DNA of 5,629 nt from a virus (Duplodnaviria; Heunggongvirae; Uroviricota; Caudoviricetes). The position numbers were made by a program, and so were the translations under genes. Positions 290 to 1,434 of this stretch are shown here, piece by piece. Within the stretch, counting starts at the first letter, position 1, and the number at the start of each line of letters is the position of its first letter. The stretch lies in the IMG/VR virus record IMGVR_UViG_2660238352_000003. One strand, given 5' to 3'. The notes below the pieces were generated by a model that worked only from the letters and a program-made list of their open reading frames with translations, had not been told where the DNA came from and did no database searches.

Positions 290-1434
290 TTGCGCCCCCT
301 TACCTCTGAAGGGTTCAGCGACAAATTTATGAGACTGGCCAGTAGCGCCGCGTCGTTGATGCGGTCATACAGACTTACAGCCAGCGGGGATTCGGCTTTT
401 GCCAACATGGGATAAAGCTGCTGCAGCCAGACCTGATGAATTGATGAAATGTAGGAATAGAGAACGCTGGCGTTATGTGCAACGTCGCTCAGTACAGAGG
501 GATTTGAAAGCTGTTTCTCCATCTGGTTAAAGGCATTGATGTATGCCTCTTTGAACTGGGCAGCACGTTTACCCGTGAAACCCATAGCAAGAAACGCAAA
601 GCCGTCGCGGGTTATTTGATAGCAAGGTAGTTTGCGGCCTGTGCAATCGGTGTAATCACTCACCGAAAAATTGCGGGAAGTGAATGATGCAGAGCATTCA
701 AGCGTGCGGATCTTTTTCAGTACATCGTCATGACGTTTGGAGAAGAAGTTGGCAACAGCCAGGGATGAAGTAACAGCCTGACCATCAACGATGGCAATTT
801 CAGGTTGAGTGAGGGTTGGGATCGTAGCCATGATGGCAGCCTCCGTTGACTGTGGAAAACTTCCACCACCGGAGCTGCGAAACTCACTGGTGGCAGACTG
901 AACAGGGTTCGCAGTACCGGCGTCAACGGAGACCGGCGAGCCTTTCGGCTCCCCTGCCCAGCCCACCATAATTCTGGCGTGCGTGAGCGCGGACGATAAA
1001 AAAGACGCTGGCGCGTCATATATCGCCGTTGACAATTCCGGGCTGCGACCCCCGGCACCCGCTTTATAAGGTGCCTGAGCAGTGTAACGTCCCGGAATTG
1101 CAGAATCAATATGCTGGTGGTCCTTCACACTCAACAAAATCACGCCTGAATTTCCACAAAGGACTAAAGCACTCATGCTGGTAGTCTTTGCGAAGATAGA
1201 TAACGCGCTGTGTTTCTGGCTCCCAACGAATAACATGAACATAAAGTCCTCTTCCGTCACGAAACCAGCGGTTAAGTTCCTGCACAACTCGCCCCCCACA
1301 GTCAGGTAAAGTTCTCTGTGGTTACTTACAGCCAGGTGATTTGGTAATCTGCATTCATGCCGTAACAACAGGTGTGCAGCGACACTGACCACCAGCTGTT
1401 GCGACAAACGGTTATTTGCCGTTAAACTGTTCAT
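286..1434 (-). CDS. Phage early protein with a Rha-family domain (382 aa) in the replication-gene position; unrecognised N-terminal domain plus low-complexity linker
   Basis: ORF track 286..1434 (-). Residues ~215-300 (IVDGQAVTSSLAVANFFSKRHDDVLKKIRTL ... YQITRDGFAFLAMGFTGKRAAQFKEAYINAFNQMEKQL) match the recalled hallmark of the phage regulatory protein Rha family (Phage_pRha). The start ATG 1434..1432 overlaps the stop of the upstream gene (ATGA) and is preceded by GGAG. An alternative internal start at ATG 831..829 with a strong GGAGG SD lies just before the Rha domain. Confidence 0.7.
   Translation of the reverse strand: MNSLTANNRLSQQLVVSVAAHLLLRHECRLPNHLAVSNHRELYLTVGGELCRNLTAGFVTEEDFMFMLFVGSQKHSALSIFAKTTSMSALVLCGNSGVILLSVKDHQHIDSAIPGRYTAQAPYKAGAGGRSPELSTAIYDAPASFLSSALTHARIMVGWAGEPKGSPVSVDAGTANPVQSATSEFRSSGGGSFPQSTEAAIMATIPTLTQPEIAIVDGQAVTSSLAVANFFSKRHDDVLKKIRTLECSASFTSRNFSVSDYTDCTGRKLPCYQITRDGFAFLAMGFTGKRAAQFKEAYINAFNQMEKQLSNPSVLSDVAHNASVLYSYISSIHQVWLQQLYPMLAKAESPLAVSLYDRINDAALLASLINLSLNPSEVRGRK
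841..1033. repeat. Iteron-like repeat cluster inside the 382-aa ORF: CCGTTGAC x2 direct plus 1 inverted, nested inverted repeats, adjacent AT-rich patch
   Basis: CCGTTGAC at 843-850 and 1026-1033; the inverse GTCAACGG at 923-930 (10-bp inverted repeat CTCCGTTGAC 841-850 / GTCAACGGAG 923-932). ACCGGCG is repeated at 916-922 and 932-938. CTGCGAA (875-881) / TTCGCAG (908-914) is interleaved with CCACC (863-870) / GGTGG (889-893). An AT-rich stretch with the palindrome GACGCTGGCGCGTC lies at 996-1026. Confidence 0.3.

Follow-up and report, generated by a model that had tools for sequence, protein, structure and literature searches.

In the stretch of virus DNA analysed here (the window, 5,629 nucleotides, Caudoviricetes), positions 1110-829 of the minus strand very probably make up an RNA immunity cassette, complete in itself, of the P1 immI / Gifsy-1 isrK type, which controls a Rha-domain gene starting at the AUG at 831. 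The cassette is an ordinary copy of a switch already known from phage P1 and from the Salmonella prophage Gifsy-1, and not the replication origin that an earlier note on this DNA had considered. The evidence consists of the membership of two tandem RNAs in described families, the structures of these RNAs, a three-way complementarity that covaries between related loci, and the non-coding nature of what had been taken for the linker-coding part of a 382-aa open reading frame (ORF). The features are collected in Table 1.

Table 1. Features of the cassette and its surroundings, in window positions; sequences of minus-strand RNA features are given as RNA.
Feature	Sequence	Position	Strand	Basis or remark
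8-mer copies	CCGTTGAC	843-850, 1026-1033; inverted 922-929	+; inverted	
DUF4222 gene, 59 aa		1106-1285	-	Pfam DUF4222, 1.1e-13; annotated by PGAP; frame differs from that of the 382-aa ORF
Putative -35	TTGATT	1104-1109	-	proposed
Putative -10	TACACT	1081-1086	-	proposed
IsrK-type RNA (a1/b1 leader)		998-1074	-	Rfam RF01394; two 5' hairpins, single-stranded stretch, terminator
a1, upstream target copy for C4 junction	GUCGCAG	1043-1049	-	loop of IsrK hairpin 2
b1, upstream target copy for C4 loop	GUCAACGG	1026-1033	-	third 8-mer copy, inside isrK
IsrK intrinsic terminator	GACGCGCCAGCGUC + U6	998-1017	-	terminator scan; 3' hairpin of Rfam isrK model; predicted fold
C4 antisense RNA		886-973	-	Rfam RF01695
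b' recognition sequence	CUCCGUUGAC	922-931	-	12-nt loop of C4 hairpin 2; inverted 8-mer copy
a' recognition sequence	CUGCGAA	908-914	-	single-stranded junction 3' of hairpin 2
C4 basal stem, 3' strand		889-897	-	alternative partner 870-862, putting a2 in a hairpin loop
a2, downstream target of a'	UUCGCAG	875-881	-	
Alternative helix, downstream strand	GGUGGUGGA	862-870	-	
b2, downstream C4-loop target	GUCAACGGAG	841-850	-	overlaps Shine-Dalgarno; first 8-mer copy
Shine-Dalgarno	GGAGG	840-844	-	8 nt upstream of AUG 831
Rha-domain regulator / putative antirepressor gene, 181 aa from AUG 831		286-831	-	Pfam Phage_pRha

The repeats of this region are present as the earlier note had described them. 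The 8-mer CCGTTGAC has three matches against 0.17 expected, a number reached in none of 200 dinucleotide shuffles; its two direct copies lie 183 bp apart and are accompanied by one inverted copy. Positions 841-850 and 922-931 form a perfect 10-nt inverted repeat interleaved with a second one (869-881 / 908-920), ACCGGCG occurs at 916 and 932, and an internal start at 831 is preceded by GGAGG at 844-840; no further repeat family was found within 700-1500. The proposed AT-rich stretch with a palindrome survives in part: GACGC...GCGTC is found at 1004-1017, where it forms the terminator of the IsrK-type RNA, but the A+T content of 996-1026 is 55%, compared with a window-wide value of 52%, and stays at or below 60% in every 30 nt within 780-1120, and the composition of 996-1026 is that of the A6/U6 terminator tail together with an ATATAT. 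The 8-10-mer repeats are the recognition loop of a C4 antisense RNA and its two sets of targets, non-random elements that are not iterons. The second, interleaved inverted repeat corresponds to the C4 junction (a') and its targets a2 and a1.

The first of the two RNAs is an IsrK-type leader. RF01394 is matched at 1074-998 over its full length (model positions 1-77), its 58.7 bits exceeding the gathering score of 50 (E 4.6e-11). In the region where this isrK model passes, the dedicated Rfam c4-a1b1 model reaches 17.1 bits and stays under its threshold. Taken alone, the stability of this RNA is not unusual (z -0.65). Since a strict promoter scan of 600-1600 returned no match, the promoter upstream of it is proposed from conservation: TTGATT-17-TACACT ends 7 nt before 1074 and agrees with the consensus at 8 of 12 positions, and the pattern TTGAYN-17 nt-TAnAnT recurs about 7 nt before the 5' end of isrK in 17 of 17 loci. 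The similarity between the EH1846 locus and the window starts just upstream of the putative -35 element. The repressor-operator-like 18-mer of this prophage, which has a LexA/CI-like repressor at 2306-2983, is absent near the cassette promoter, and no link to the CI-type repressor emerged.

The second RNA belongs to the C4 family. Its match to RF01695 at 973-886 spans model positions 1-87 of 87 at E 8e-15, the 78.8 bits exceeding the gathering score of 45, and by alignment with the 77-nt C4 of P1 the mature molecule is probably the ~79 nt between about 967 and 889. The minimum free energy (MFE) fold reproduces the family structure, with a long basal stem and two hairpins (-47.8 kcal/mol, z -4.3); in this fold of C4 alone both b' and a' are exposed, a' being unpaired, and the two ACCGGCG repeats make up the stem of hairpin 2 on either side of b'. 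C4 measures 85, 86, 87 or 88 nt depending on the locus. Across 12 loci, its three internal helices (helices 4-6) keep 100% pairing, and 12 of their pairs have changed on both sides. The alternative helix open to the 3' strand of the basal stem (897-889 / 870-862) is likewise maintained, with 92.6% of cells paired over 12 loci, four pairs changed on both sides and a covariation score that none of 500 shuffles reaches.

These two RNAs are tied to each other and to the start of the gene by complementary sequences. The pair counts refer to the 12 loci of identical geometry (alignment A2), because in an alignment of 17 sequences (A1) the variable loops were misplaced for the length-variant loci P1, PhiR12, Kpn74, phiKO2 and APSE-7; the loci outside the counts were covered by duplex search. 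Between the leader and C4, a1/a' is paired in 97.6% of cells, with six of seven pairs changed on both sides, and b1/b' in 90.3%, with G.U variants present and both sides changed in 8 of 12 pairs; taken jointly, the two helices have 93.0% of their cells paired and both sides changed in 14 of 19 pairs, a score reached by none of 500 shuffles, while slid controls give 37-48%. On the downstream side, all five pairs of the a'/a2 core (helices 8-9) and 8 of the 12 of b'/b2 (helix 7) are changed on both sides, and the C4 internal helices, a'/a2 and b'/b2 together are 92.5% paired with 26 such pairs (0/500 shuffles). The predicted b'/b2 duplex, of 10 bp and a G.U, has an energy of -18.8 kcal/mol. The suggestion in the earlier note that an inverted repeat whose 3' arm carries the Shine-Dalgarno sequence regulates the start at 831 appears essentially right. 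Two identities had gone unrecognised there: the 5' arm of this repeat is the loop of the C4 antisense RNA, and the third copy of the 8-mer is an upstream target mimic within the IsrK-type RNA.

The gene that follows encodes a protein with a Phage_pRha domain (4.5e-31) and matches to PHROG families of transcriptional regulators and anti-repressors; some phage records name it Ant, and it is best described, from these similarities, as a putative antirepressor. Its true start is probably 831: in the phage records L009, L012 and L016 the coding sequence begins at the equivalent AUG. Around the Shine-Dalgarno sequence, the block GAGGCUGCCAUYAUGGCUAC is conserved across the lambdoid loci.

In terms of mechanism, C4 processing, action in trans, translational repression and an activating role of IsrK are proposed by analogy with P1 and Gifsy-1. 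Transcription from the sigma-70-type promoter (~1109-1081) would start near 1074, and most transcripts would end at the terminator at 1017-998 to yield a 77-nt IsrK-like RNA carrying a1 and b1. Read-through RNA would hold C4 (973-886) and extend across a2, b2 with the Shine-Dalgarno sequence and the rha coding sequence; C4 would be excised from it as a stable RNA of ~79 nt, as in P1, where C4 is processed by RNase P and where processing and trans action were reportedly described by Citron and Schuster in 1990 (a study cited in PMC12197685 and PMC2864571). The hairpin loop (b') and the adjacent junction (a') of C4 would then pair with b2 and a2; as the b'/b2 duplex covers the Shine-Dalgarno sequence, ribosomes could not start at 831 and the regulator would be off in the lysogen. 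In P1, the block of translation also causes premature, Rho-dependent termination of transcription. Because the IsrK-like RNA bears both target sequences, it could turn translation on by titrating C4 or by opening the leader paired in cis, as IsrK does in Gifsy-1. Differences in loops and targets between related prophages would give each its own specificity, that is, heteroimmunity.

The related loci illustrate how variable this specificity is. In all 16 related phage loci isrK is followed by C4 after 22-44 nt, a layout shared with P1 and Gifsy-1. Among 17 loci there are 14 loop and 11 junction sequences, which occur in 16 combinations, and in every locus the two targets fit the C4 encoded there; the b'/b2 duplex energy is -13.6 kcal/mol with the own target versus -6.8 kcal/mol with foreign ones, and the own target is the best one in 14-17 of the 17 loci. 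In WGPS2, the start of rha (132/132) and the upstream flank are identical to those of the window, the cassette and its 8-mer differ, and the three copies have changed together; in Stx2c, the loop of one locus is found with the junction of another. The gene behind the cassette varies (Rha, BRO-N, icd-like, Ant) and the cassette remains unchanged. The cassette family matches DNA in 3092 of 5426 complete Escherichia coli genomes, with up to seven copies per genome. Neither P1 nor P7 was among the matches when the P1-like RCS47 cassette served as a megablast query.

Three linked readings follow, which as a set seem to us evenly poised between true and false. First, IsrK would be the same element as the 'a1/b1' leader of P1, a terminated target mimic that titrates its own read-through C4, and the 'orf45/STnc1160' of Gifsy-1 would be a C4 RNA. 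Second, the ~250-nt cassette would be a freely exchangeable specificity module, a reading suggested by the 16 combinations in 17 loci, the flank identity of WGPS2 and the loop/junction mix of Stx2c. Third, the 'ash family protein'/PF10554 annotation at cassette matches in RefSeq E. coli would result from conceptual translation of these RNAs.

One alternative to a trans-acting switch is a leader acting in cis only, in which folding of the read-through mRNA lets 931-922 sequester the Shine-Dalgarno region at 850-840, and in which no processed, trans-acting RNA takes part. The MFE fold of the 255-nt leader, which counts in favour of the C4 switch as well, does pair b' in cis with b2 and the Shine-Dalgarno sequence (z = -5.2), the covarying alternative helix suggests that cis rearrangements occur, and the long transcript of Gifsy-1 has been described as a translationally inactive cis structure (PMC4825925). 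Such a leader would nevertheless leave unexplained the full-length C4 match with its long basal stem, which serves only for a discrete stable RNA. The P1 record annotates C4 as a separate 77-nt RNA, P1 C4 acts in trans and sets P1/P7 heteroimmunity (PMC12197685; PMC6906374), a stable processed RNA, STnc1160, has been seen at the equivalent position of Gifsy-1, and 16 specificities between otherwise identical flanks would be difficult to account for if co-resident phages did not act on one another in trans. A purely cis-acting leader is thus improbable.

Whether the region is instead protein-coding was assessed from the reading frames. According to this alternative, 1086-799 encodes an 'Ash' domain fused to Rha, either in the 382-aa ORF or in the 296-aa Rha protein annotated by PGAP from 1176, and the repeats are by-products of coding. 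The frame is indeed open for 382 codons, in several relatives as well, so that the ORF to which the earlier note assigned the repeats exists mechanically; the Pfam Phage_ASH profile (PF10554) matches aa 117-212 (1.3e-17, 64.6 bits against a gathering score of 26), and elsewhere PGAP calls an 'ash family protein'. In the DUF4222 region, however, the distribution of variable columns over the three codon positions of the 382-aa frame is 4/17/4, a concentration on third positions of the DUF4222 frame, and the 382-aa ORF is therefore not the coding frame there. Within 1074-832 codon periodicity is absent (12/15/9, 7/7/7, 16/16/17, 12/14/14), with no third-position excess anywhere. The 382-aa frame is not the coding frame of 1285-832, and the 'linker' is non-coding. 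Against a fused domain stand also the differences of 1, 2 or 3 nt in C4 length between loci, the intrinsic terminator and conserved putative promoter inside the supposed domain, the strongly covarying RNA pairs, and the behaviour of the Phage_ASH profile itself, which gives 27-56 bits with translations of the cassette alone and matches the translated cassette whatever gene comes next, including phiKO2 gp30, which corresponds to just the C4 region. Stops interrupt the frame read from the AUG in the C4 5' end (window position 969) in 7 of 19 loci. A coding linker is very unlikely. In the other 12 of 19 loci the frame from the AUG at 969 has no stop before the gene start, compared with 5 and 2 loci for the two remaining frames; because it is open more often than these, a translated leader ORF like orf45 of Gifsy-1 may add a layer beyond the RNA switch. 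A leader ORF required everywhere was rejected, given the seven interrupted loci and four loci in which it is out of frame with the gene.

The iteron origin, which would make the 8-mers binding sites for the protein of the surrounding ORF beside an AT-rich unwinding region, as in the lambda ori within O, could draw on the over-representation of the 8-mer, a short A/T run nearby, the oriL that the P1 record marks within repL and the habit of lambdoid prophages of placing ori inside the initiator gene, yet it retains next to no probability, because three copies in mixed orientation form no regular one-orientation array, A+T hardly departs from background and peaks at 60% per 30 nt, the only domains found are Phage_pRha and a doubtful Phage_ASH with no replication-initiator domain and a non-coding 'linker', the same cassette precedes unrelated genes and sits in phages with an origin elsewhere, such as P1, a separate helix-turn-helix gene, presumably O-like after yfdO of CPS-53, lies downstream in relatives, and the repeats are not conserved in relatives as an origin predicts but vary together with their complementarity kept, G.U pairs included, a mode of change that is meaningful only for RNA.

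The RNA immunity cassette is an ordinary finding in itself, a textbook-type antisense RNA switch (P1 c4) in its Gifsy-1 IsrK form. It bears on annotation, as the 382-aa ORF, the 296-aa 'Rha' of PGAP and the 'ash family protein' all translate through two RNA genes, a putative promoter and a terminator. The comparison also joins two literatures that are usually separate, that of C4 in P1/P7 and that of IsrK in Gifsy-1. Recognition sequences that are highly variable between otherwise identical prophages bear on cross-repression and cross-induction among co-resident Stx or lambdoid prophages and, if the cassette is an exchangeable module, would provide lambdoid prophages with a large repertoire of RNA-coded immunity types.

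Among known systems, the lambda origin in gene O resembles this locus in that short repeats occur within what looks like an ORF of a lambdoid early operon; here, by contrast, there is neither an initiator domain nor an AT-rich region, and the repeats are few, of mixed orientation and covarying as RNA pairs. The immunity system of P4 (CI RNA, seqA / seqC) is similar in principle, as a processed leader RNA pairs with complementary sites upstream and downstream on the same transcript, an analogy already drawn in the Gifsy-1 paper (PMC4825925). In P4 the outcome differs, being the termination of transcription before the replication genes.

The isrK - orf45 (STnc1160) - anrP region of Gifsy-1 has the same two tandem Rfam RNAs before a putative antirepressor gene: isrK is followed by C4 and then by the AUG of anrP, and the C4 match lies where 'orf45'/STnc1160 was placed (PMC4825925). 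According to the same paper, which does not term orf45/STnc1160 a C4 RNA, IsrK is transcribed from a promoter of its own, ends at a leaky terminator, binds Hfq and, as the short RNA, activates translation of the downstream gene in trans (PMC4825925). Counted from the isrK 5' end, the AUG in the C4 5' end occupies the position of the first orf45 AUG (+107). AnrP, however, resembles the PhiR12 antirepressor and not Rha, the ORF starting in C4 runs here without a stop in frame into rha, and the cassette follows the Q antiterminator gene in Gifsy-1 and cII/DUF4222 here.

Another close parallel is the immI region of P1/P7 (c4 - icd - ant), located at 48.1-48.7 kb of the P1 record, in which 86-94.8 kb corresponds to immC. 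In P1, icd and then ant1/2 stand behind b2 in place of a Rha-domain gene, the b'/b2 duplex has 7-8 bp instead of 10-11 bp, and the prophage is a plasmid and not, as here, an integrated lambdoid (CPS-53/e14-like) element; a C1-type operator was not found at the promoter of the present cassette, and the P1 leader matches the isrK model weakly (35.1 bits), compared with the 58.7 bits, above threshold, obtained here. The order of elements is nevertheless the same, with promoter, a1, b1, terminator-like hairpin, C4, a2, b2 over the ribosome binding site and regulated gene; the P1 record gives a1, b1, C4, a2, b2 and start codon, with b2 just before the start of icd, and the C4 RNAs belong to the same Rfam family, the Rfam models matching P1 in the same layout. 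In the heteroimmunity of P1 and P7, specificity resides in a few loop nucleotides (PMC6906374, PMC12197685), and the same principle, by which a few loop nucleotides set specificity, is found in the cassette of this window.

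The repeats at 841-1033, put forward in an earlier note as a candidate lambda-like replication origin, belong to an RNA cassette on the minus strand, a known kind of element recognised directly by Rfam. Scanning with the curated gathering scores as thresholds gave two full-length matches, a C4 antisense RNA at 973-886 (78.8 bits against a gathering score of 45) and an isrK RNA at 1074-998 (58.7 bits against 50); with both RNAs placed, a role can be assigned to every element first described. The 8-mer CCGTTGAC is indeed found on the plus strand at 843-850 and 1026-1033 and inverted at 922-929 (three copies against 0.17 expected, a number reached in none of 200 shuffles), as are the perfect 10-nt inverted repeat 841-850/922-931, the interleaved inverted repeat 869-881/908-920 and the two ACCGGCG copies; of the supposed AT-rich patch, the GACGC...GCGTC palindrome (1004-1017) stands and the AT-richness does not (55% A+T versus 52% in the window). 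The names follow P1, with b' for the hairpin loop and a' for the junction; the APSE-7 record labels them the other way round.

Genes and RNA elements of the locus, with window coordinates
Feature	Sequence	Position	Strand
LexA/CI-like repressor gene		2306-2983	plus
yfdP/yfdQ/yfdR			plus
Cro-like gene		2234-2037	minus
YmfL/CII-like gene		2009-1431	minus
DUF4222 gene		1285-1106	minus
Rha-domain gene		putative start AUG 831	minus
a1, additional copy, loop of isrK hairpin 2	GUCGCAG	1049-1043	minus
b1, third 8-mer copy, upstream target, single-stranded part of isrK		1033-1026	minus
Palindrome and A-run, intrinsic terminator of isrK			
b', inverted 8-mer copy, 12-nt loop of C4 hairpin 2	CUCCGUUGAC	931-922	minus
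Both stem strands of C4 hairpin 2	ACCGGCG	916, 932	
a', single-stranded C4 junction, part of second inverted repeat	CUGCGAA	914-908	minus
a2, partner of a' in second inverted repeat	UUCGCAG	881-875	minus
b2, first 8-mer copy, downstream target	GUCAACGGAG	850-841	minus

The two RNAs, their structures and the three-way complementarity with its covariation are observed features of this family of loci. Searches with 1110-780 hit 215 phage records; among 5426 complete E. coli genomes, 3092 contain matching DNA, at up to seven places in a single genome. Sixteen diverse loci were chosen for comparison (Stx, Salmonella phages, cdtI, P1-like RCS47/JL22, N15-like phiKO2, a Klebsiella phage and APSE-7), and in all 16 isrK is followed 22-44 nt later by C4. 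Across 17 loci, the loop and junction sequences vary (14 loops, 11 junctions, 16 combinations) and the upstream and downstream targets fit the C4 of their own locus every time. In a 12-locus alignment, pairing is kept at 93.0% for a1/a' and b1/b' (slid controls, 37-48%), and both partners have changed in 14 of the 19 pairs, a covariation score reached by none of 500 shuffles; for the internal helices of both RNAs together with a'/a2 and b'/b2, pairing stands at 92.5% and both partners have changed in 26 pairs. The b1 pairing includes G.U variants, which make sense only at the RNA level. Predicted duplexes with the own target are about twice as stable as foreign ones (b'/b2, -13.6 versus -6.8 kcal/mol), and the own target ranks best in 14-17 of the 17 loci, according to the element. 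A promoter-like TTGATT-17-TACACT ends 7 nt upstream of 1074, equivalent hexamers are present at all loci compared, and the stretch that phage EH1846 shares with the window starts just upstream of the -35.

By analogy with P1 and Gifsy-1, the isrK terminator would stop most transcription from the cassette promoter. Read-through would yield C4, probably excised to about 967-889, as estimated by aligning it with the P1 RNA as annotated; on this alignment the mature 5' end known from P1 maps just past the AU of an AUG at 969-967, so that RNase P-type processing would remove this start codon. C4 would then use b' and a' to bind b2 and a2, blocking the rha ribosome-binding site, and a short IsrK-type RNA carrying the same targets could lift the block.

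The earlier note's second reading, an RNA structure sequestering the ribosome-binding site, was right in essence: b2 overlaps the Shine-Dalgarno GGAGG (844-840) of AUG 831, and in the 255-nt leader fold b' pairs with b2 and this site (z -5.2). A leader structure acting only in cis may contribute to the mechanism, but it accounts neither for the discrete C4 fold, which taken alone adopts the family structure with b' and a' both exposed (-47.8 kcal/mol, z -4.3), nor for the diversification of specificities. As a separate observation, an alternative helix 889-897/862-870 (minus strand), in which the C4 basal stem gives up its 3' side to pair with a conserved element of GGUGGUGG type lying past a2, would put a2 into a hairpin loop; this helix covaries (92.6% paired, four pairs changed on both sides) and may be the counterpart of the Gifsy-1 alternative structures A/B.

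The cassette had been taken for the protein-coding linker of a 382-aa frame (1434-286), which in the mechanical ORF list spans the YmfL/CII-like end, DUF4222 and the Rha-domain gene. Substitution pattern and indels contradict this, and the linker is non-coding. Counted by codon position in the 382-aa frame, variable columns number 4/17/4 across the DUF4222 gene; the peak coincides with third positions in the DUF4222 frame, identifying that frame as the real one, and the counts are flat in isrK (12/15/9), spacer (7/7/7), C4 (16/16/17) and target region (12/14/14). C4 measures 85, 86, 87 or 88 nt between loci, and the frame from the AUG in its 5' end meets stops in 7 of 19. AUG 831 is most likely the true start of the Rha gene, giving a 181-aa product with a Pfam Phage_pRha domain (4.5e-31); PGAP places the start of a 296-aa 'Rha family' protein at 1176, overlapping the DUF4222 gene in another frame. 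Pfam 'Phage_ASH' (PF10554) matches aa 117-212 of the 382-aa ORF and tracks the translated cassette regardless of the following gene; phiKO2 gp30 is the C4 region alone, yet matches it, and PGAP labels such stretches 'ash family protein'. Because the matched stretch is without coding signature, the 'ash family' protein may have arisen as an artefact of translating RNA genes. The origin reading is wrong on every defining feature tested, the repeats being too few, of mixed orientation and unconserved, the region not AT-rich and the initiator domain absent.

Several further observations concern these frames. PF10554, RefSeq 'ash family protein' and N-terminally extended 'Rha' coincide with translated isrK and C4 (799-1086, minus strand; 668-1213 in comparison locus L022). 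The 382-aa ORF begins with an ATG that shares bases with the YmfL stop codon (ATGA, 1434-1431), and in the 149 nt up to the DUF4222 start (1286-1434, minus strand) codon periodicity is absent (11/13/14; few relatives vary there). The C4 AUG opens a stop-free frame of 46 codons in frame with rha (969-829, minus strand), by position count at the Gifsy-1 orf45 start; of 19 loci, 12 keep this frame uninterrupted up to the start of the gene, compared with 5 and 2 for the remaining frames, which may mean that the lambdoid subgroup favours a translated leader.

The window comes from a CPS-53/e14-type lambdoid prophage of E. coli and comprises its immunity and early region. A near-palindromic 18-mer, ATGTAGGATATCCAACAT, lies at 2267-2284, in the interval separating the divergent repressor and cro genes, and again at 3046-3063 and 3081-3098, both past the end of the repressor gene, with 6 strand matches against 0.01 expected; these copies are probably operators of the LexA/CI-like repressor, and none of the 18-mer positions in the window is near the cassette promoter. 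A sub-threshold STnc100 match between yfdQ and yfdR (4685-4865, plus strand; 23.4 bits, gathering score 47, E 0.05) is probably chance. A 61-aa ORF (MFAGSDSGGEHAAVLYSLIGTCRLNNVEPEKWLRYVIEHIQDWPANRVRDLLPW...) at the right end (5428-5613, minus strand) may be the C terminus of an IS66-family transposase, in which case the prophage is interrupted or truncated directly past yfdR. The closest E. coli genomes align from position 91-94 onward only, so that left of ORF 65-289, a small one, these relatives have a different gene content; judging by the alignments, the 1-93 edge is a mosaic boundary.

Stx2a_WGPS2 (L004) is identical to the window over 1434-700 at 149/149, 179/180 and 132/132 flanking positions, and inside the cassette at 56/77 (isrK), 8/24 (spacer), 53/88 (C4) and 30/54 (targets); an Stx2c phage joins the b' loop of one locus to the a' junction of another. 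From WGPS2, and also from comparison locus L008, the cassette behaves like an exchanged or fast-diversifying specificity module. Three side observations are of modest value: this possible exchange between identical flanks, the RNA annotated as 'Ash' protein and the possible equivalence of IsrK to the a1/b1 leader.

The P1 GenBank record annotates, in order, promoters, a1, b1, a 77-nt C4 RNA, a2, b2 and, 11 nt further on, the start of icd, and the Rfam models used here also match P1 in identical layout; the window, sharing this element order, therefore has the P1 immI architecture. In Gifsy-1, isrK (34316-34240) is followed by a C4 match (34214-34131) and the anrP start, the C4 match coinciding exactly with the published 'orf45'/STnc1160 site (PMC4825925). 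There, IsrK has been studied experimentally: on its own the long read-through transcript stays untranslated, the short IsrK RNA switches it on in trans, and STnc1160 is detected as a stable processed RNA (PMC4825925). A 2025 review carries IsrK and c4 as two separate entries (PMC12197685). P1 and P7 are described as heteroimmune through C4-level specificity (PMC6906374, PMC12197685), and differences in cassette specificity would likewise render prophages heteroimmune at this level.
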